NCBI GenBank assembly: GCA_012646105.1
Contig: GCA_012646105.1_4328.1
Origin: a phage
Length of the DNA stretch: 43,583 bases
Direction: 5' to 3' (one strand)
In this document: piece after piece, positions 1,076 through 33,325 of the stretch
Position numbering within the stretch: position 1 is the first letter of the stretch
Layout of the letters: every line of letters begins with the position of its first letter
The notes under the pieces: model-generated
Seen by the model: the letters and a program-made list of their open reading frames with translations, nothing else
Databases searched by the model: none
What the model was told of the DNA's origin: nothing
Made by a program: the position numbers and the translations under genes

Positions 1076-3706
1076 TTAACTAAAACCGTTGCTGAATCCG
1101 TCGGAGAAACCGCGACCGAAAGGTGCGACGCCGTCGTATTTGTAGAAATCTGCTTCGTAGTTAACCCCGGTAATCTTAACTGTTCTGTCATCTCCCGGGT
1201 CAACTGTAGAAACAAGAATCATCTGAGCATTATGCCTTGCTTCGTTACCGAATGAAAACTCAGTTTTTAGCGCACTATTCCCTGTGTAAATTGCTTCTTG
1301 AGGCGCGGATAACATAACCACTTCTCGGTCGTGGCTTCCCTTGATAACAGAGATACTTTGCACCGAGCCGTCGCGCTTCTTGAGAATGAGTGAATGGTCA
1401 TCTCCGGGGGTAAATGTAACTGGCTGTGATAGTGTCAGGGTAAGCCCATTAACGGCAACGACATAACCATCTTGAGGTGCTACTCGCGAGCCTTTAACTA
1501 CGCTTATTGCCCGTCCTGGAAGCACAAAAACCCCTTCTTCTGTCGCCGTGAATGATACCGTAACTTTTTTCAACAAGTTCTTCTGATACCGGCGGTACGC
1601 GGCCCAATATGCTTGCCGGTAGTTGCGGATACCTTTAGAGTCATACGTTTCAGTATTAACGCCGCCCTCGGCTGGAATGCTAATAGTCTCTTTTACGTTG
1701 GTATCAGTGTCGATGTAGGAGAACTTAAGGCTATCGTATACCTGAGAGTCGTTAAATGTGCGTGTCCATTTTTCCGAAGCTGTTGTCTTGCTGCGGTGGG
1801 TGAACACCATCTCTGGCCCCATACGTGGACGTTCGAAATCCAGTAATATGTCCTGTCCTTTACGATATGGAGTGCAGAAAATAGCATCAGCTATTGTGCT
1901 GATGATATCCTGCATGGTCGTTTTATAATCGTCAAAGGTGTAGCAGAATTGTCCTGCATCAACGTTACCGAAATAGTTTTCTATCTCGGTTTGAGTTGCT
2001 AGCAATTTATCCATATTAGATGTTGTGAGGTTGAGATTCCCTACAACCGGGTCGCGGGCCAGACGGATTAAGGACTGAACCGCCTGCGTATTCGGCGTCA
2101 TTACGGTGTCAAACACACCATTACCCAGGTATTTATAAACCATCTCAGTCGCCACCATACGTAGTTGAGGCTGCTTAATCTCTGCGGCCCGAGGCGTCTG
2201 CTTACGTGCGGAGTGTACGGTAGTACGATTGCCGTAATGGGGTGTAGTGTCACGAACCTGCCCATAAAGGTTGATGTAGGAAACCTCGTCTACCACGGTA
2301 CCCTCGAAATCAAGGTCCAGGTTGGTAACACGACGGGCGCGCACCCGAACTTTAGACCTCACGGGCAAGTCGGCGTAAATAGTAACTCCAGTGTAATCCG
2401 CCGAACGCCCTGATAAAGTGGCCTGTTTCGAGTAAATATCTCCGTATGGCATGCCAGTTTCATCAAGTAGCTGATACTGAAGCTCGACAGTTACCGCCGT
2501 TCGCAATTTGCTGCCGTTATCCTTGTACATACCATTAGCGGCCGCGATGTTGGCTACTACGCGTTCAACTTCCAGGCGGTTTAAGATAGTCCAGTCGGTT
2601 AGTGTTTTTTCATAGGTGTCCACCGGCCCCACCCACGTGTCACTTCTCTGGGAAAGTGAATAGGCTGTTGAACCTAAAGCTGCCCAGTTAGACGCGCCGC
2701 CGGTGTCGACTCGCAGCTCGAAGTTATCAACATAAAGAACGCGGAAGTTGCCGTTGGTGTTTGTCACGCCCGGAACGTCGAAGTTATTGAACGACGCGGT
2801 GTCCCCTACCGATAATATTTCAGCAAAACCAGAATCCCCCGTGTCATCATACAGGTATCCAATTTTTGTAGCGGAGTCATACCTCACACGGCCAGTGTCG
2901 CTTGGGTTGACCCGAATATCGTTCTGCGCTTTAAGAACAGCACCGTCTACTTCATTAGAAGCGATAGTTATATAAAGATTCTGATTGATAGGCTCCCCTA
3001 CCAGAAGATGAGGGGTATTTGTATTGTTGGGGGATGTAAACGGCGCGTACACCGCGACAGAGGTCCCTGTAATCTCCTGTACTTTAGTATCACCGTCAGT
3101 AATGTCTTCTGCTTTGATATCAAGGTACCCGCGACCGGCGTCGTAGTATCCGTACTCAATAATGCGACCAGATTCATCGAATATCTTATACGTAGTCATG
3201 AGGTCGTTAGGGATAGTCTGGACCCTGCCGCAAATATCATACGACCGTTCATACGGACGCGGTTTATTGTTTCGGTCCGTCAGGCTGTTGTTGGGCGACT
3301 CCGCCTGCTGATTCGCTAAACTCGTTTTAGGTGTTTTCTGTGACGGAGAAATAAGTTTAGTGACAAACTTAAGTACGCCCAATGGGTCAAGCAATTTCCC
3401 GAGAAACCCACCGCCACCGCCTGCGCCTTCGATAATATGGAAAACATCATCTTCTTTCAGCGCTTCGAAGTTTTCCGTTACGTCGGTGTCCTCACCAATC
3501 TCGCCACGGTAAATACGTACTGGTACCCCGTCTGGGATGTTGGCGACAACATATTCCATAGGGGGTACGTTATGCCGTTTGTGGTCGAAAGTACCGCCTT
3601 CATTACGGGTGTAATGTATTATTAGCGCCAAAATTCTATCTCCGCATAAGTTTCGCGCAAGTCTTCCAGACGGTCTAACCGTACCTGGCGACTCGCGAGT
3701 TCGCAA
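1076..3706 (-). CDS. central tail fibre / tail-tip host-specificity protein (876 aa ORF; alternative ATG at 3559)
   Basis: six-frame ORF; size and position after minor tail genes; Gly-rich linker GGGGGF; no good RBS at either start so coupling to upstream gene likely. Confidence 0.6.
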   Translation of the reverse strand: MRTRESPGTVRPSGRLARNLCGDRILALIIHYTRNEGGTFDHKRHNVPPMEYVVANIPDGVPVRIYRGEIGEDTDVTENFEALKEDDVFHIIEGAGGGGGFLGKLLDPLGVLKFVTKLISPSQKTPKTSLANQQAESPNNSLTDRNNKPRPYERSYDICGRVQTIPNDLMTTYKIFDESGRIIEYGYYDAGRGYLDIKAEDITDGDTKVQEITGTSVAVYAPFTSPNNTNTPHLLVGEPINQNLYITIASNEVDGAVLKAQNDIRVNPSDTGRVRYDSATKIGYLYDDTGDSGFAEILSVGDTASFNNFDVPGVTNTNGNFRVLYVDNFELRVDTGGASNWAALGSTAYSLSQRSDTWVGPVDTYEKTLTDWTILNRLEVERVVANIAAANGMYKDNGSKLRTAVTVELQYQLLDETGMPYGDIYSKQATLSGRSADYTGVTIYADLPVRSKVRVRARRVTNLDLDFEGTVVDEVSYINLYGQVRDTTPHYGNRTTVHSARKQTPRAAEIKQPQLRMVATEMVYKYLGNGVFDTVMTPNTQAVQSLIRLARDPVVGNLNLTTSNMDKLLATQTEIENYFGNVDAGQFCYTFDDYKTTMQDIISTIADAIFCTPYRKGQDILLDFERPRMGPEMVFTHRSKTTASEKWTRTFNDSQVYDSLKFSYIDTDTNVKETISIPAEGGVNTETYDSKGIRNYRQAYWAAYRRYQKNLLKKVTVSFTATEEGVFVLPGRAISVVKGSRVAPQDGYVVAVNGLTLTLSQPVTFTPGDDHSLILKKRDGSVQSISVIKGSHDREVVMLSAPQEAIYTGNSALKTEFSFGNEARHNAQMILVSTVDPGDDRTVKITGVNYEADFYKYDGVAPFGRGFSDGFSNGFS

Positions 3707-8612: not shown

Positions 8613-9029
8613 CTACTTTTCCTGCAATTGGCGAAGCTGTTCGTTATGGAAAACAACAACATGTTCAGCTAGACGTTTATATTGAGAGAAAAGAGTATTC
8701 AGGTTCTCTTTATTAAATTCATCGTCGAGACTCCAACCGTTAACCAGTTCAAGTGCTAACTGGCGGTTAAGGTCCGTCGCGGCGTCTTCCATCTTAATGT
8801 TGTATTCCGAGAAATCTTTCAGTTCCTCGCATTTATCACGAAGCGGTTTCAATTTACCTAATGCTGCTCGGTACGCCAGGGTAAACGCCCTCATAGCTTT
8901 AACGGCAACGTCGGCATCGGGGGAGACAACGTTAAGCCATTCTCCTGAATCGGTGCCGTCTTTCAGCGGGATTGGCATACGGGCGCCTTTTTCGGCCTCA
9001 GCTTCGTAATAAAAATCAGAAAGTTTCAT
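8613..9029 (-). CDS. tail assembly chaperone (gpG-like, 138 aa)
   Basis: acidic small protein directly upstream of the second chaperone ORF and tape measure; conserved G/GT position. Confidence 0.55.
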   Translation of the reverse strand: MKLSDFYYEAEAEKGARMPIPLKDGTDSGEWLNVVSPDADVAVKAMRAFTLAYRAALGKLKPLRDKCEELKDFSEYNIKMEDAATDLNRQLALELVNGWSLDDEFNKENLNTLFSQYKRLAEHVVVFHNEQLRQLQEK

Positions 9030-9136
9030 TATTTAATCCTTTGGTTAAGAGGTTACTGGTTAAGGTTAATGCGCCAGGCGGGAACCACCCGCTTTTCGTG
9101 TGCGACACTAGGCGCAAAATAATTCTAACACATTAC

Positions 9137-9165
9137 TTGCGCACCCCAACATAATAGGATACTAT
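9137..9165 (+). promoter_or_regulatory. sigma70-like promoter TTGCGC-N17-TACTAT with embedded AATAG-N4-CTATT operator-like palindrome
   Basis: -35 at 9137-9142, -10 at 9160-9165, 40 nt upstream of ATG 9206; near-identical copies at 18181, 28837 and 29836. Confidence 0.5.
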
Positions 9166-9205
9166 TCACTTACACCAACGATGTTATCTTAAACGGGGCT
9201 ATATC

Positions 9206-9397
9206 ATGACAAGCATTACTATGTTCTTCTTAATCATTATTGTTTTAGTTTATTTTATTCCGTTTCTCGTGGCGCATATGCGCAACCATAAAGCTAAATT
9301 AGCGATATTCATGGCTAATCTGTTTCTCGGTTGGGTTCTGCTGCCGTGGGTATTTATTTTAATCTGGGCGTGCAACTCGAATGTCAAAGAGAAGTGA
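9206..9397 (+). CDS. small inner-membrane protein resembling superinfection-immunity family proteins (63 aa, 2 TM)
   Basis: two hydrophobic helices; motif VAHMRNH...AIFMANLFLGWVLLPW matches my recollection of the Imm_superinfect family; opposite strand to flanking tail genes. Confidence 0.55.
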   Translation: MTSITMFFLIIIVLVYFIPFLVAHMRNHKAKLAIFMANLFLGWVLLPWVFILIWACNSNVKEK

Positions 9398-18180: not shown

Positions 18181-18209
18181 TTGCATACTCCAATATAATA
18201 GGGTACTAT
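18181..18209 (+). promoter_or_regulatory. promoter TTGCAT-N17-TACTAT with embedded operator-like palindrome
   Basis: -35 at 18181-18186, -10 at 18204-18209, RBS AGGAG at 18224-18228, ATG 18237. Confidence 0.5.
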
Positions 18210-18236
18210 TCAGTTAACTTAAACAGGAGATGAGAA

Positions 18237-28805: not shown

Positions 28806-28836
28806 CTTCTGTCTCTCCTCTCGTTTGTGTAAATGA

Positions 28837-28865
28837 ATAGTAGCCTATTCTATCTTAGTGTGCAA
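28837..28865 (-). promoter_or_regulatory. promoter TTGCAC-N17-TACTAT (minus strand) overlapping GAATAG-N4-CTATTC palindrome
   Basis: -35 at 28865-28860, -10 at 28842-28837. Confidence 0.5.
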
Positions 28866-28872
28866 GTAAATT

Positions 28873-29134: not shown

Positions 29135-29157
29135 AAGTCACTCAGTAAAATCCCAAA

Positions 29158-29370: not shown

Positions 29371-29613
29371 TTATTCACGGCAACCTCCCTCAGAGTCGTC
29401 GGCACAAGCATCACGATTCGATGCCGCTGTGAATGAGGCTTTCAGTCCGCCATCGAATACCCCATATTCGCCGTCGCCGAACTGGTCAACTACCAACTCG
29501 CACCCTGTTTCATCTATTACATAATCGTAATCAGGTGTTGAATAACCGCTGTATGATCTTCCCGGCTTGAACCCCGATAATTTACTTTTCACGCAAATTA
29601 ATTCTTCCATCAC
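29371..29613 (-). CDS. hypothetical early protein (80 aa, acidic, Cys-containing)
   Basis: six-frame ORF, ATGA coupling. Confidence 0.5.
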   Translation of the reverse strand: MMEELICVKSKLSGFKPGRSYSGYSTPDYDYVIDETGCELVVDQFGDGEYGVFDGGLKASFTAASNRDACADDSEGGCRE

Positions 29614-29810
29614 TTCACCCCTTTGAATTTAAAATTGTTGCCAATTAATTCCAGATTATCGCGTAAGGCGAACCCGGGTTTCTTTCTTACCAGGCTCCAT
29701 ACGTCGACTATATTATCCTCGTCATACTCGTTCTCGTCCTGCAACACTATTACGTACTGCCCACCGCGTTCCGTTTTCACCAACTGACCACGTTTAAACA
29801 TAACCCTCAC
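29610..29810 (-). CDS. hypothetical early protein (66 aa; ATG at 29801 or GTG at 29810)
   Basis: first gene after promoter 29836-29864. Confidence 0.5.
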   Translation of the reverse strand: MRVMFKRGQLVKTERGGQYVIVLQDENEYDEDNIVDVWSLVRKKPGFALRDNLELIGNNFKFKGVK

Positions 29811-29835
29811 TCCTCTGTCTCGTTTCGATAAGTGA

Positions 29836-29864
29836 ATAGTAACCTATTATGTTGGGGTGTGCAA
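29836..29864 (-). promoter_or_regulatory. promoter TTGCAC-N17-TACTAT (minus strand) with embedded operator palindrome
   Basis: spacer ACCCCAACATAATAGG is almost identical to that of the 9137 promoter. Confidence 0.5.
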
Positions 29865-30296
29865 GAAAATAGTTACGTTGCCGTTGTGATTCTTTGGGGA
29901 AGGTTGTGCCTTTATTCTTATTACTTGGTAACTAAAGGGCAGGCCTTAAGCCTGCCCAATAATCGTTACATTTTTACGGTTGCGAATCTACGGCATATTA
30001 AGAAAATCAGATACTTAAGAGATATGCTGCCGATGTGAATAGAGCTTGCCCAGGGCAACCGGAGATACTTAGGAAGGAAAGTTACGATAATTCATATGTT
30101 CAGTAAGCCTGCTGCTTAACCCTTTGCTTAACGCACGGGTTAAGCATTCTTACAAGGTGAACAGGAATCAAAGTAACTAAGATATAGAAGCACCTTAAAC
30201 GAAGATTTTCATAATGTCAATAGGTGCGATTATGTTTTATTTCCCATTATTCGCAATGTATACTTGGTTTCGTTAACTGATAATGAGGGTTTGAGA

Positions 30297-30467
30297 ATGA
30301 CGCAGAATGAGGTAGCTGAGCGTATCGGGGTTACTCGTCGCACGCTGAATAACTGGTTAAAGAGTGGGAAGTTCCCTGATTGTTGTATTCGCATTATGGG
30401 CCGCCGTCAGCCAGGTACGTTCGACCCGGAGAAAGTGGAAGCGTGGATTAAGGAGAACGTGAAATGA
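30297..30467 (+). CDS. AlpA/Xis-like HTH transcriptional regulator (57 aa)
   Basis: MTQNEVAERIGVTRRTLNNWLKSGKFPD...WIKEN pattern; RBS GAGGG. Confidence 0.6.
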   Translation: MTQNEVAERIGVTRRTLNNWLKSGKFPDCCIRIMGRRQPGTFDPEKVEAWIKENVK

Positions 30468-30697
30468 CAGAGTTCCAGTCACGCGTATTTACGGCAGTCG
30501 TTTCGTTAACACGTAAAAAAGGTTCGTGCAGCGTTATCGACTTGCGCCGTAGTTATTTTAAGTACTATAGTTCAGCCATTATTGAAGGGTCGTTACGCGT
30601 GCTGGTTAAATCCGGTGTCGTGAAAAATGTTGGCGGGAAATATAGCGCCGTTGCTGAAGTGCGCGGAATGACCGCTACTTTAGAAGACCTGGAATAA
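30464..30697 (+). CDS. hypothetical protein (77 aa)
   Basis: six-frame ORF, ATGA coupling. Confidence 0.5.
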   Translation: MTEFQSRVFTAVVSLTRKKGSCSVIDLRRSYFKYYSSAIIEGSLRVLVKSGVVKNVGGKYSAVAEVRGMTATLEDLE

Positions 30698-30756
30698 AAG
30701 AAAGCCCCGACGCGGTGAACGCCGAGGCTAAATTACTTGCTGAAGGAATATACAAC

Positions 30757-32997
30757 ATGTCCGATGTAATTTTATCCTACTCGTGGTCTCGTCGCAACGC
30801 GCGGGCGGAGAAAAAGGATATAAACGTCAGAACCACACACACGGCAACACTGGACGACCTGAAAGAGTTAATCCAGCCGCTCGATGCCGTTCGCGATGGG
30901 GTTAACCTGAAGACCGCGCCCGGCTATATCACGGCCGCGTGTGACTCTACGCACAGCACCGTAAAAGACCCGGAAACAGGTGACTTTAAGCAAGCTCGTA
31001 AAGGCTTCTTCTATCGCTGTGACGCGTCTGTAAGCAAATCGTCGCTGGCATATCTGGACTTCGACAGCGCAACGCCGGAAGAGTATCAGGAAGCTGTGCG
31101 CCTGGTTAAGCGCAGCCGTAAAGCCATGTGCCTTTACACCACGGCATCACATACCGATGAGTCCCCACGCTTTCGCGTCGTCATGCCGCTGGCCCGCCCG
31201 GTCGAAGGCGGCGACATCATCCGTGTTCGCCACGGGTTGCTGGAGCATTTCTTTAAGGGCATGGGTGCTGACCGCAGCGGGTTCACTCTGTCCCAGCCTA
31301 TGTACCTGCCGCCGGTCGGCTCGCAGGTTATCTGGTCGCGTCGCAATGACCCGATTGACCCGGACGAGTTACTGGAAGGCATCCCGGATTACGAGGTGAG
31401 CAGCGCATCTGACTACCAGATACCGGAAGAACTGCGCACAGCGTTTACGGACGCGTTTGAGGCACTGGCGTTCGAGTACGGCGGCATCATGACGCCACGC
31501 GGCCTTAAGATGCCCGCCACACTAGAACACGCAGAAAACTACAGCGACCCGACGCCGCGTCCTGACGACTTCCTGCTGTGTTTCCCGCGTGAAGGATATG
31601 AAGCGCCGAACGTAACCATGATTCACGACACCGACATTACGGCAACCGAAGGCATGTCGCCGAAAGAGGTGTGGAAGTACGCGTGTGATGCTACAGGGCT
31701 TCCGTTCAGTGAAGTTGCAGAGGCTATCGGCTGGGGTGCGCGTGAATCTGTTTCATGCAGCCTCGACGACCTGGAAGACGACGATGACTCAGAGGAGGAC
31801 GAGCTACCAGAACCAGTAAAGGCTGATTTCGTCGTTGAAGGGTACATGCCGTCGGATTGCATCTGGGACATCGTCGGGGAGTCTGGTACGTATAAATCCT
31901 TCTATACGCTGGGGATGATGTACCTGAGCGCCGCCGGATACCGGTTTGCAGGGGCAGACACCCAGCGTTGCCATCACTTCTATATCGACGGTGAAGGCGG
32001 CGCAGCTACCCGCACCCGTATCGATGCGCTCACGGCTAAATATGGCGAGGAAGGTAAAGATTATGTGCATGTCATAGATATGGGCGAAGTCGGCAAGCTG
32101 AAAAACCTGATTAAGTTGATGCGTGAAACTGCTGGCGACGAGCCAATTGGCATGGTCGCGTTCGACACTCTCAACCAGACACTGGCCCTGACGATTGATA
32201 AGTTCGACGAGAACAGTTCATCAACGGCAATCGGCATGGGTAAAGTTATCGCCATCCTGAAAGAAGTACGTGACGCAACTAAAGCCGCGGTGGGCGTCGT
32301 CCACCATACACCGAAGGGCGGAAAGAAAGCCCGTGGCAGCGGGGCGCTGTATGCGGGTGTCGATGTGGAACTGACAATAGAACGTGCAACCGACCGTCAG
32401 ATAAACGTATACCACTCGAAATTTAAGCACGGGCCTCAACAGAAAACGGTTGGTATGGTGCTCGAGTCTGTACAGTTCCGTGAAGCACCACCGCCGAAAG
32501 AGTACCGTGCTGTTGAGTTCTTGGGCAGCACAGAGGAATACGGCACAATCGTAAACCTCGACCTGCCGGAACCACACAAGGCGCTTGTTCTGATGCCGTG
32601 GGGCTTCGAGCCGTTCAAAACTGACGAGGAGAAAGAGCGGGAAGAAGGGTTAACTAACGAAGGTAAACAAAAAGTAAAGGAAGAAGTTAAACGCGGCAGG
32701 GATGAAGTAAGGAAGGAGTCGATACTTTCGGCACTGGAAGACCTGCAACAGTCAGATGACACAGGTCGCGGTTTTACTCAGCAGCAGATAGTGGCCCGTT
32801 CCGGTGACTTTTCTGTGACTAACACCCATCTTGATAAAATGCTGAAAGATGGTGAACTAATGCTAGGCTGTGATGCTAATGGCGAAGTAGTACCGAGAAC
32901 GTATCGTATACCTGAAAGAATAGGGGATAGACTAAGACCGAAGACAATATACGAACCGAATGAAATGCTGGTAGTGACAGAAGAGGATTTGGAATAG
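30757..32997 (+). CDS. DNA primase / replicative helicase fusion (alternative GTG start 30715)
   Basis: C-terminal Walker A GESGTYKS and Walker B VAFDTL, N-terminal primase-like region; RBS GAAGGA. Confidence 0.7.
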   Translation: MSDVILSYSWSRRNARAEKKDINVRTTHTATLDDLKELIQPLDAVRDGVNLKTAPGYITAACDSTHSTVKDPETGDFKQARKGFFYRCDASVSKSSLAYLDFDSATPEEYQEAVRLVKRSRKAMCLYTTASHTDESPRFRVVMPLARPVEGGDIIRVRHGLLEHFFKGMGADRSGFTLSQPMYLPPVGSQVIWSRRNDPIDPDELLEGIPDYEVSSASDYQIPEELRTAFTDAFEALAFEYGGIMTPRGLKMPATLEHAENYSDPTPRPDDFLLCFPREGYEAPNVTMIHDTDITATEGMSPKEVWKYACDATGLPFSEVAEAIGWGARESVSCSLDDLEDDDDSEEDELPEPVKADFVVEGYMPSDCIWDIVGESGTYKSFYTLGMMYLSAAGYRFAGADTQRCHHFYIDGEGGAATRTRIDALTAKYGEEGKDYVHVIDMGEVGKLKNLIKLMRETAGDEPIGMVAFDTLNQTLALTIDKFDENSSSTAIGMGKVIAILKEVRDATKAAVGVVHHTPKGGKKARGSGALYAGVDVELTIERATDRQINVYHSKFKHGPQQKTVGMVLESVQFREAPPPKEYRAVEFLGSTEEYGTIVNLDLPEPHKALVLMPWGFEPFKTDEEKEREEGLTNEGKQKVKEEVKRGRDEVRKESILSALEDLQQSDDTGRGFTQQQIVARSGDFSVTNTHLDKMLKDGELMLGCDANGEVVPRTYRIPERIGDRLRPKTIYEPNEMLVVTEEDLE

Positions 32998-33016: not shown

Positions 33017-33232
33017 TTAAGCCCCTTCACCGAACGCCAGCCACTTGGCGTCTACTTGCAGAACTTCCGCCAGTTTAAACAGCGTCGCCGGGCGGACGTC
33101 CTGAGTTACCCCAAGTGCAAGCTGGTTAATCGCGCCCTGGGAAACGCCGGCCAGGACAGCCAGACGGCGCTGGGAGATGCCGAGTTCTTTACGGCGTTGT
33201 TCTACACGGATGCCTAGTTCAGATGGTTGCAT
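33017..33232 (-). CDS. XRE/Cro-type HTH regulator (71 aa)
   Basis: LGISQRRLAVLAGVSQGAINQL helix-turn-helix; perfect RBS AAGGAG; divergent from plus operon. Confidence 0.7.
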   Translation of the reverse strand: MQPSELGIRVEQRRKELGISQRRLAVLAGVSQGAINQLALGVTQDVRPATLFKLAEVLQVDAKWLAFGEGA

Positions 33233-33252: not shown

Positions 33253-33325
33253 TTGATATGTGAATAGTACCATATTAATTATTTTAGAAAAGCCCATTGA
33301 CATGTGAATAGTTCGCTATTATAGT
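33253..33325. promoter_or_regulatory. divergent promoter/operator region with two operator palindromes
   Basis: TTGATA-N17-TAATTA and TTGACA-N17-TATAGT, each spacer containing TGTGAATAGT; leftward -10 TACTAT at 33269-33264. Confidence 0.5.

Follow-up and report, generated by a model that had tools for sequence, protein, structure and literature searches.

The window analyzed here (contig GCA_012646105.1_4328.1 at its full length of 43,583 nucleotides) is, as judged from its sequence, an essentially complete genome of a Kagunavirus (Guernseyvirinae). Its leftward early genes and its replication operon are separated by a divergent intergenic gap, which is the subject of this study and which probably encodes a new phage non-coding RNA, structured and ~255 nt long. 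A preliminary description had placed the gap at 29865–30296. The gene layout confirms the divergent arrangement, but the exact limits are 29811–30296 (486 bp): position 29865 is the upstream edge of the leftward promoter (29829–29864), which was thus left outside the region. On the left side, the minus-strand genes consist of small early open reading frames (ORFs) followed by lysis and structural genes, and they extend to ~11 kb; the first of them starts at 29810 (GTG) or, as the sequence suggests, three codons in at 29801 (ATG). On the right side, the plus-strand genes encode a 56-amino acid (aa) helix-turn-helix (HTH) protein of the HTH_17/MerR/excisionase-like kind (ATG at 30297), a PHROG-5169 ORF, and a 760-aa helicase-primase with an AAA_25 domain (PHROG 3228), the gene for which starts ~420 bp downstream of the gap region.

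The preliminary description had offered the gap as a candidate replication origin or regulatory RNA locus. Of these two proposals, the RNA locus is supported, albeit indirectly, by a promoter, a terminator-like hairpin, a stable fold, covariation, conservation, and the absence of a conserved ORF. For the origin, no positive evidence was found beyond the position and a switch in the GC skew. The features on which the following analysis is based are listed in Table 1.

Table 1. Features of the gap and related sites (window coordinates unless a relative is named)
Feature	Position	Strand	Description
Whole proposed RNA	29930–30185	−	~255 nt; both ends predicted
5′ domain	30080–30178	−	One extended imperfect stem-loop, ~100 nt, −39.9 kcal/mol
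Helices of the 5′ domain			P1 AGUUAC/GUAACU; P2 UGAUUC/GAAUUA; P3 UGUUCA/UGAACA; P4 GUAAG/CUUAC; apical stem
Apical stem-loop	30113–30146	−	Perfect 10-bp stem, 30113–30122/30137–30146, −19.2 kcal/mol; second hairpin of the preliminary description in a corrected register
3′ half of the proposed RNA	29958–30079	−	Two copies of UC(C/U)U(A/U)AGUAUCU (30074–30063 and 30020–30009); CU-rich stretch; hairpin UUGCC-CUG-GGCAA (30058–30046) followed by conserved UCUAUU
Hairpin 1 and tail	29927–29957	−	Stem-loop 29937–29957; tail UUUAGUUACC 29936–29927; intrinsic-terminator-like 3′ end of the proposed RNA
Near-universal element TAGTTACGTTGCCGTTGTGATTC	29870–29892		Between the terminator-like hairpin and the −35 of P_left
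P_left	29829–29864	−	−35 TTGCAC 29864–29859; 17-nt spacer; −10 TACTAT 29841–29836; predicted start ~29829; promoter of the leftward early operon
Copies of GAATAGTANCCTATTAT	9151, 18195, 28835, 29834, 33262, 33306, 36135		Palindromic core of P_left
P_x	30185–30220	−	−35 TTGACA 30220–30215; 17-nt spacer; −10 TAAGGT 30197–30192; predicted start ~30185; candidate sigma-70 promoter
P_x equivalents in relatives		−	Jersey TTGACA-17-TAAGTT; type B TTGACT-17-TAAGCT; L017 TTGAAA-18-TATAAT (11/12); L055 TTGACA-16-TAAAAT (11/12)
P_right	30236–30271	+	−35 TTTATT 30236–30241; 17-nt spacer; −10 TATACT 30259–30264; predicted start ~30271; promoter of the HTH/helicase-primase operon
Extra ~50-aa ORF in relatives	L003 ~1590–1737; L012; L210, L212 and L219 at 1362–1514		Between the P_right ribosome-binding site and the HTH gene

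The minus strand of the proposed RNA (256 nt, from ~30185 to ~29930) folds with an energy of −81.0 kcal/mol (z = −5.97), and none of 200 dinucleotide-shuffled sequences was as stable. The plus strand of the same stretch gave −72.9 kcal/mol (z = −3.84) and a much more diffuse ensemble. The fold is also maintained among relatives. In an alignment of 44 sequences, made with the covariance model R1, pairing is kept in 90.5% of the cells, as compared with 33–44% when the partners are slid against each other. Doubly changed cells number 58, as compared with 18 ± 3 in shuffled alignments (none of 500 shuffles reached 58), although these double changes occur in only 6 of the 40 pairs, many pairs are invariant, and the sequences are mutually related. 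Exactly one copy per genome was detected by R1 at all 44 type-A loci (E = 1e-35 to 1e-43), always antiparallel to the HTH gene, and a second copy was not found in the window.

The conservation of this non-coding DNA is conspicuous. The region 29400–30900 is 90–96% identical to those of many E. coli phages, including ZCEC5, ULINTec2, K1ind1 and SHAK7693, and the gap alone, used as a query, retrieved 447 phage records, of which 325 were those of Salmonella phages (Jerseyvirus) with 70–79% identity over nearly the full length. Between Kagunavirus and Jerseyvirus, positions 29871–30079 are 87–94% identical, as compared with 68% for the helicase-primase gene and 86% for the HTH gene; the 3′ half of the RNA by itself shows 87–89% identity to Jerseyviruses. 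The least conserved part of the gap is the apical stretch, with 59–62% identity. One of the similar records, OR594180.1 (L001; Escherichia phage vB_EcoM_SHAK7693), is filed as Autographiviridae/Kayfunavirus and carries the name element 'EcoM', while being ~95% identical to the present Kagunavirus region with a shared gene order; the record thus seems to have been misclassified or misnamed.

Three host-type (sigma-70-type) promoters, P_left, P_x and P_right, are predicted in the gap. The one from which the RNA would start is P_x, which had neither been annotated nor noticed before. It agrees with the consensus at 9 of 12 positions, with a perfect −35 and with −12T, −11A and −7T present, and a generic promoter scan omitted it because its −10 matches at only 3 of 6 positions. 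In alignment A2, the hexamers of P_x are invariant and its spacer is variable. Moreover, every allele class examined has a minus-strand promoter at the equivalent place, 77–121 nt from the HTH start codon. P_x stands back-to-back with P_right, in which the hexamers are likewise invariant and the spacer variable; the −35 is TTGATT in relatives, and type B alleles have TTGCTT-17-TATACT. In the records of the Salmonella phages PVP-SE2 and phi135 (both Jerseyvirus), the site homologous to P_right bears a promoter annotation. A T at 30238, specific to this phage, weakens the P_right −35 from TTGATT to TTTATT.

P_left was found in almost all relatives. Since no more than 60 nt separate the P_left element from the first leftward gene, this element leaves the remaining ~430 bp of the gap unexplained. 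A P_left-type element of ~40 nt (29829–29868 in the gap) recurs directly upstream of genes at 9133–9172 (plus strand), 18181–18220 (plus strand) and 28835–28868. Its palindromic core, GAATAGTANCCTATTAT, occurs in seven copies in the window, as compared with 0.24 expected. In four of these copies, one half of the palindrome serves as the −10 (TTGCAC-17-TACTAT), and in at least two others, at 33298 and 36127, the palindrome sits inside the spacer of plus-strand TTGACA promoters, that is, in the opposite orientation. Two copies lie ahead of a different gap, the one that adjoins a Cro/CI-like HTH_3 gene (33017–33232, minus strand). The appearance of the palindrome is that of a shared operator to which a phage regulator would bind. 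The same motif has been reported in the related phage fBC-Eco01 as a seven-copy repeated 'phage promoter' consensus (PMC9825357). The left arm of the window has few plus-strand genes; one of them, at 9206–9394, has a P_left-type promoter and encodes a 63-aa membrane protein with a superinfection-immunity domain (Imm_superinfect, E = 8e-14).

The predicted 3′ end of the RNA is provided by hairpin 1, the first stem-loop of the preliminary description, which is present as described (GGGCAGGC-CTTAA-GCCTGCCC). Its stem of 8–9 bp with seven G-C pairs, its loop of 3–5 nt and its stability as RNA (−17.1 kcal/mol) agree with the GC-rich stem of an intrinsic terminator. A terminator scan scored it on the minus strand only, and the same holds for L021. 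On that strand, the tail UUUAGUUACC contains five U in eight positions, with at most three in succession, and passes the scan; on the plus strand there is no U run. Among the homologous hairpins, those of L025 and L021 passed the scan, and those of the type B allele L023 and the L015-type failed it. The stem is kept by compensatory changes: GGGCAGGC/GCCTGCCC is replaced by GGGTGGGC/GCCCACCC in L014 and L004, and four Jerseyviruses have GGGCAGGT/ACCTGCCC instead. In other alleles, this place is taken by another GC-rich hairpin, the minus-strand tail of which is rich in U. An earlier RNA end is possible at the small hairpin 30058–30046 with its conserved UCUAUU.

In the 5′ domain, all 24 variants share the architecture of one extended stem-loop (z from −3.3 to −7.6), and the changes among relatives are of a kind that preserves it. 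The closing pair of P4 occurs as GC (25), UA (9) and AU (7); two pairs of P2 switch on both sides between the genera; and P3 carries in Jerseyviruses a coordinated one-base insertion on each side. The sequence AGTTAC/GTAACT occurs four times within 310 bp and is invariant. At the tip of the domain, the preliminary description had noticed a direct repeat of GCTTAAC with an inverted partner. These sequences are indeed present (30114–30120, 30126–30132, and GTTAAGC at 30139–30145); however, the hairpin that had been drawn from them at 30126–30145 is replaced in the minimum-free-energy and conserved pairing by the 10-bp apical stem. The inner GCTTAAC copy becomes GCTTGAC in relatives without compensation, so that the pairing of 30126–30145 decays, and the outer stem changes jointly on both sides, from TGCTTAACCC/GGGTTAAGCA to TGTTTAACCC/GGGTTAAACA. 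By our own estimate, 486 bp should contain a perfect inverted repeat of 10 bp with a short loop ~0.01 times. The apical segment exists in 24 distinct versions among the 44 relatives, and all 23 extractable ones fold into a stem-loop, with an inner hairpin of varying size.

In the 3′ half, the two UC(C/U)U(A/U)AGUAUCU copies and the CU-rich run are predicted to be unpaired; they are conserved between the genera, and related motifs occur in other allele classes. A helix of this half (153–166/173–186 in alignment A5) is preserved through G-U/G-C and A-U/G-U switches. Indels of 1 nt were found inside this conserved half (L007, L004, and the Jersey group), which argues against coding. A T at 30033, specific to this phage, disrupts a G-U/G-C pair of the 3′ helix; it is also the source of the stop that interrupts a 51-aa ORF of SHAK7693. 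Beyond hairpin 1, no Kagunavirus allele class lacks the element TAGTTACGTTGCCGTTGTGATTC, not even those in which the remainder of the gap has been replaced, and some Jerseyvirus relatives have it as well. An exact 17-mer scan of viral contigs for this element returned this phage family and a few chance matches. The element may be a site for an activator or other regulator, or a 3′ extension of a read-through transcript.

The gap is a mosaic among relatives: several allele classes with little shared sequence exist, and every class has the promoter and terminator motifs in the correct order. L017 and L024 have the last 80 nt and the HTH allele as in type B, the 3′ half as in type A, and a 5′ module of their own. 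The 5′ cassette of the RNA, including P_x, is thus exchangeable independently of the adjoining P_right/HTH allele, and because of this independence, the cassette is suggested to be a unit of selection in its own right. In the L021-type Jerseyviruses (L021, L035, L027 and others), a type-A 3′ half is inserted at a GTAACTG junction before a shorter L015-type 3′ end, resulting in two tandem hairpins before P_left. The recombination joints are marked by AAGT(A/T)ACTGA-like sequences. L045 and L046, which were considered as family members, proved to be unrelated high-GC phages.

A protein-coding explanation of the conservation was not obtained, as no ORF is conserved on either strand across the relatives. 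The plus-strand ORF noted in the preliminary description (29832–30038, 68 aa) exists but is not a gene, being truncated or absent in relatives. A 30-aa minus-strand ORF and the 51-aa plus-strand ORF annotated in SHAK7693 are not conserved either, and the latter is interrupted by a stop in the window; neither the 30-aa nor the 68-aa ORF matched a PHROG family. The apparent conservation of a 20-aa plus-strand ORF (30214–30276) comes from its overlap with the P_right hexamers: the substitutions fall in the spacer and are non-periodic, and the frame is lost in type B. In Rfam, no family reached the gathering score within the gap when the window was scanned, and the searches with the region (E up to 10) and with eight relatives (E up to 1) gave terminator-like noise only. 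When metagenomes were scanned with a 17-nt core pattern, the matches were mostly due to chance, apart from six close relatives; the RNA seems specific so far to Kagunavirus and Jerseyvirus. No mention of this RNA was found in the literature or in the inspected database annotations; the only Kagunavirus transcriptome paper found gives gene-level counts.

The side on which the promoter lies, the minus-only U tail of hairpin 1, the U-rich tails in other alleles and the helices that depend on G-U pairs all point to the minus strand as the strand of the RNA. On the plus strand, a comparable or conserved promoter upstream of the structured part was not found in the allele classes examined. A plus-strand RNA ending at hairpin 2 was rejected, since it has no conserved upstream promoter, no U-tract after the long stem, and a weaker fold.

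Several observations weigh against the proposed RNA or its extent, and we set them out together. The wobble cells comprise 129 G-U and 56 A-C cells (A-C being the same pairs read on the plus strand), a bias that is modest and was counted on a structure that had itself been deduced from the minus strand; in Jerseyviruses, the plus strand folds with as good an energy as the minus strand, so that the strands are not discriminated there. The basal helices are invariant and therefore give no covariation signal. R1 does not recognize the type B, C and D alleles, which are tied to the RNA of the window by architecture alone. The −10 of P_x (TAAGGT) is weak. Because the U-tract of hairpin 1 is short and interrupted (UUUAGUU) and the scan misses the hairpins of L023 and the L015-type, read-through past hairpin 1 may be substantial. 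The high identity between the genera could come partly from a recent exchange of the module, the region being visibly mosaic. As to a target, exact complementarity of at least 10 nt within the phage is at the chance level, none of 120 translation-initiation regions stood out in duplex energy, and blastn against complete E. coli genomes revealed no similar sequence on either strand. With respect to the traits of Hfq-type small RNAs, conserved exposed motifs are present, the tail has only three consecutive U, and the phage complementarity is no better than chance. Finally, all the evidence is computational, and the start and the end of the RNA are predictions.

With these points taken into account, the explanation that we favor, and to which we give about an even chance, is that of a free early regulatory RNA on the minus strand, whose gene precedes the leftward operon in tandem and faces away from the replication-operon promoter in a back-to-back arrangement. 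Host sigma-70 RNA polymerase would start at P_x near 30185, as suggested by the conservation of this promoter in all allele classes, and run leftward. The first ~100 nt of the transcript would fold into the long imperfect stem-loop (30178–30080), with its invariant base and with a tip that is variable yet, as covariation indicates, always paired. The next segment would be largely single-stranded and highly conserved, displaying the two UC(C/U)U(A/U)AGUAUCU copies and the CU-rich run. Most polymerases would halt at hairpin 1 and UUUAGUU near 29930. More speculatively, the freed RNA of ~255 nt might then act as an early regulator, most likely through its exposed motifs, by base-pairing or by protein binding, and the long hairpin might serve as a module for stability or recognition. 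P_left just downstream would fire independently, insulated by hairpin 1.

The same RNA could instead act in cis as a structured leader of the leftward operon, controlling read-through by put-like antitermination, or the processing and stability of the mRNA through an RNase III site; we consider this unlikely. Polymerases from P_x would then continue past hairpin 1 into the early genes and, farther on, the lysis and structural genes. The RNA is indeed directly upstream of, and co-oriented with, the leftward genes from 29810 to ~11 kb, its U-tract is weak, and the hairpin is not scored as a terminator in some alleles. The phage appears to rely on host-type promoters, and its polymerases must also pass other terminator-like sites, such as that at 29135–29114. 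On read-through, a conformational switch would be possible, because the 5′ AGUUAC can pair with 30085–30080 or with the universal element (29880–29870). The 100-nt imperfect duplex, moreover, has the form of an RNase III substrate, and the T7 early region carries RNase III sites in long hairpins. However, P_left is a strong member of a seven-copy family and lies 20 nt from the first gene, so the operon does not need P_x; in the L021-type Jerseyviruses, a second hairpin between the RNA and P_left looks like insulation; and the architecture seems unlike the two short stem-loops of put. The sequence UCUCUUAA resembles a lambda-type boxA, but it is missing in type B alleles and is not followed by a boxB-like loop. 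It is also conceivable, though we regard it as unlikely, that the RNA with its invariant base and exchangeable 5′ cassette is a specificity determinant. It might decoy or inhibit an anti-phage system of the host, mark 'self' in mixed infections of related phages (incompatibility or exclusion), or confer put-like resistance to termination on the host polymerase, by which a virulent phage lacking a polymerase could time its long leftward transcription. If so, the allelic replacement of the 5′ part independently of the HTH allele would reflect diversifying selection.

Two further explanations do not require the RNA to be a regulator. In one of them, which we judge quite unlikely, the gap is a replication origin, where the inverted repeats act as DNA (ssi hairpins or a cruciform for the helicase-primase) or the P_x transcript activates or primes replication, with 30150–30275 as the unwinding element; ssiA/ssiB of RSF1010, ori(uvsY) and ori(34) of T4, and priming by RNA II of ColE1 are precedents. 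The proximity of the helicase-primase gene, the extreme conservation of the non-coding DNA and the invariant AGTTAC/GTAACT repeats are in its favor, and structure-preserving substitutions suit hairpins of single-stranded DNA as well as those of RNA. The AT-rich stretches of the preliminary description are also real (38.9% GC in the gap region as compared with 50.4% in the whole window, with a minimum of 30–32% at 30150–30275), but the minimum coincides with the back-to-back P_x and P_right, conserved hexamer by hexamer, which can account for it. The cumulative GC skew does have its minimum at ~30 kb; this coincides exactly with the switch in transcription direction, the two are inseparable, and the skew is hence uninformative. 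The repeat analysis went against an origin: within 29811–30296, no repeat is present in at least three copies (8-mers reach two at most), and the families in a repeat search had two copies, or three at only 79–86% identity, so that iterons were not found. Neither a DnaA box within one mismatch, nor an IHF consensus, nor a GATC was found in the same interval. The hairpin tips vary freely among phages, which does not point to sequence-specific recognition by a conserved primase, and the helices use G-U pairs, which are weak as G-T in DNA. An origin role thus has no positive support from the sequence. In the other explanation, which we think very unlikely, the gap is a control region acting as DNA only, with promoters, operators for two phage HTH proteins and an insulating terminator; its conservation would be due to recent recombination, and the inverted repeat would represent protein half-sites. 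Three promoters and a widely shared upstream element do lie within 486 bp, the region is a recombination hotspot with exchangeable segments, the neighboring gene encodes an HTH_17/MerR-like DNA-binding protein, and P1 and P3, which never vary, would suit sequence-specific DNA sites equally. This explanation nevertheless leaves unexplained why P2, P3, P4 and the apical stem, where the sequence is free, keep their pairing through compensatory double substitutions and coordinated indels, and why the outward-facing P_x is preserved in every allele if its transcript is useless; ~250 bp also far exceeds what operators need.

Some observations on the surrounding DNA are added here. The HTH protein adjoining the gap is present in identical form in 1949 blocks of the public collection, and a sequence search of the PDB with the N-terminal part of the helicase-primase gave no match. 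In some relatives, the extra ~50-aa ORF (MVTLTEEQLEKLL...) is inserted before the HTH gene, with the RNA region intact. In the record of PVP-SE2 (NC_073186.1, L208), an unannotated 44-aa ORF (MLKKGQLVRCAISHEYYIVLDQ...) at 303–437 on the minus strand resembles the first leftward gene of the window, and the apparent unannotated gap of 895 bp in that record is really ~590 bp. GATC is strongly depleted in the window, with 12 sites in 43,583 bp as compared with ~170 expected from the length, and none in the gap. The octamer TGTTCACC, the P4 alpha iteron, occurs once in the gap and three times in the window as compared with 1.1 expected, and was dismissed as a chance match.

Few virulent phages of E. 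coli and Salmonella are isolated as often as those of Kagunavirus and Jerseyvirus, and their use in therapy and biocontrol has been widely proposed. Annotations of these genomes treat the gap as empty. No other DNA of the early region is as well conserved, however, and a structured RNA of the first minutes of infection is probably encoded there. If confirmed, this RNA would add a new family to the short list of non-coding RNAs of virulent phages, offer a handle on early transcription in phages that lack a polymerase of their own, and explain a recombination hotspot. The case also cautions that position and GC skew alone are insufficient for labeling a region an origin.

Comparison with known systems places the RNA among, but apart from, several of them. 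The T4 origins ori(uvsY) and ori(34) and the oriV of RSF1010 with ssiA/ssiB resemble the gap in lying beside replication genes and in bringing together hairpins, a promoter and an AT-rich stretch; RepA, the helicase of RSF1010, is of the same broad helicase class as the AAA_25 domain here. In the gap, however, iterons and host initiator sites are absent, the AT-rich stretch is upstream and not downstream of P_x, the tips are not conserved, and the transcript is highly self-structured, which disfavors the formation of an R-loop. The pRNA of the phi29 family, ~170 nt long and expressed from an early promoter located at the border of the early region, keeps its secondary structure while its sequence, especially in the loops, diverges. 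The present RNA is alike in being non-coding and in keeping its structure while its sequence varies. The pRNA, however, is found in podoviruses with protein-primed replication and functions in packaging by docking on the connector, whereas the present genome is of the siphovirus type with candidate terminase ORFs elsewhere, and there is no similarity in sequence or fold.

The same genome contains a match to the int-alpA RNA motif (RF02996) at 9054–9118 on the minus strand (36.9 bits; gathering cut-off, 35.8). It lies directly upstream of a minus-strand gene resembling those for tail assembly chaperones (8613–9029), in a divergent promoter region with the P_left-type copy at 9133–9172 (plus strand). 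Like the RNA of the gap, this motif is structured and precedes a minus-strand gene within a region of divergent promoters; it is named for AlpA-type HTH genes, and an HTH_17/excisionase-like gene adjoins the gap RNA. The gap RNA, however, does not match it even at E < 10, is four times longer, and has another architecture. HK022 put and other cis-acting antitermination RNAs share with it the arrangement of a structured RNA after an early promoter and before a terminator, followed by a long co-oriented operon, all transcribed by the host polymerase. While put is ~70 nt long with two short stem-loops, the RNA here has one 100-nt stem-loop and a long single-stranded segment, and a second strong promoter, P_left, precedes the genes.

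The lambda OOP, P22 sar, P1/P7 c4 and P4 CI RNAs are likewise short non-coding RNAs encoded in an early or regulatory region beside replication genes, made by the host polymerase and ended by a GC-rich hairpin; the P4 CI RNA is located in the control region of a primase-helicase operon. These RNAs are antisense to, or processed from, a known target transcript, whereas the RNA of the gap diverges from the replication operon and overlaps no gene. It is also larger (~255 nt), is dominated by its 100-nt stem-loop, and has no match in sequence or structure in Rfam. It is best filed as an RNA of a known kind, that of the small or leader non-coding RNAs of phages, and as an RNA that has itself not been described before.

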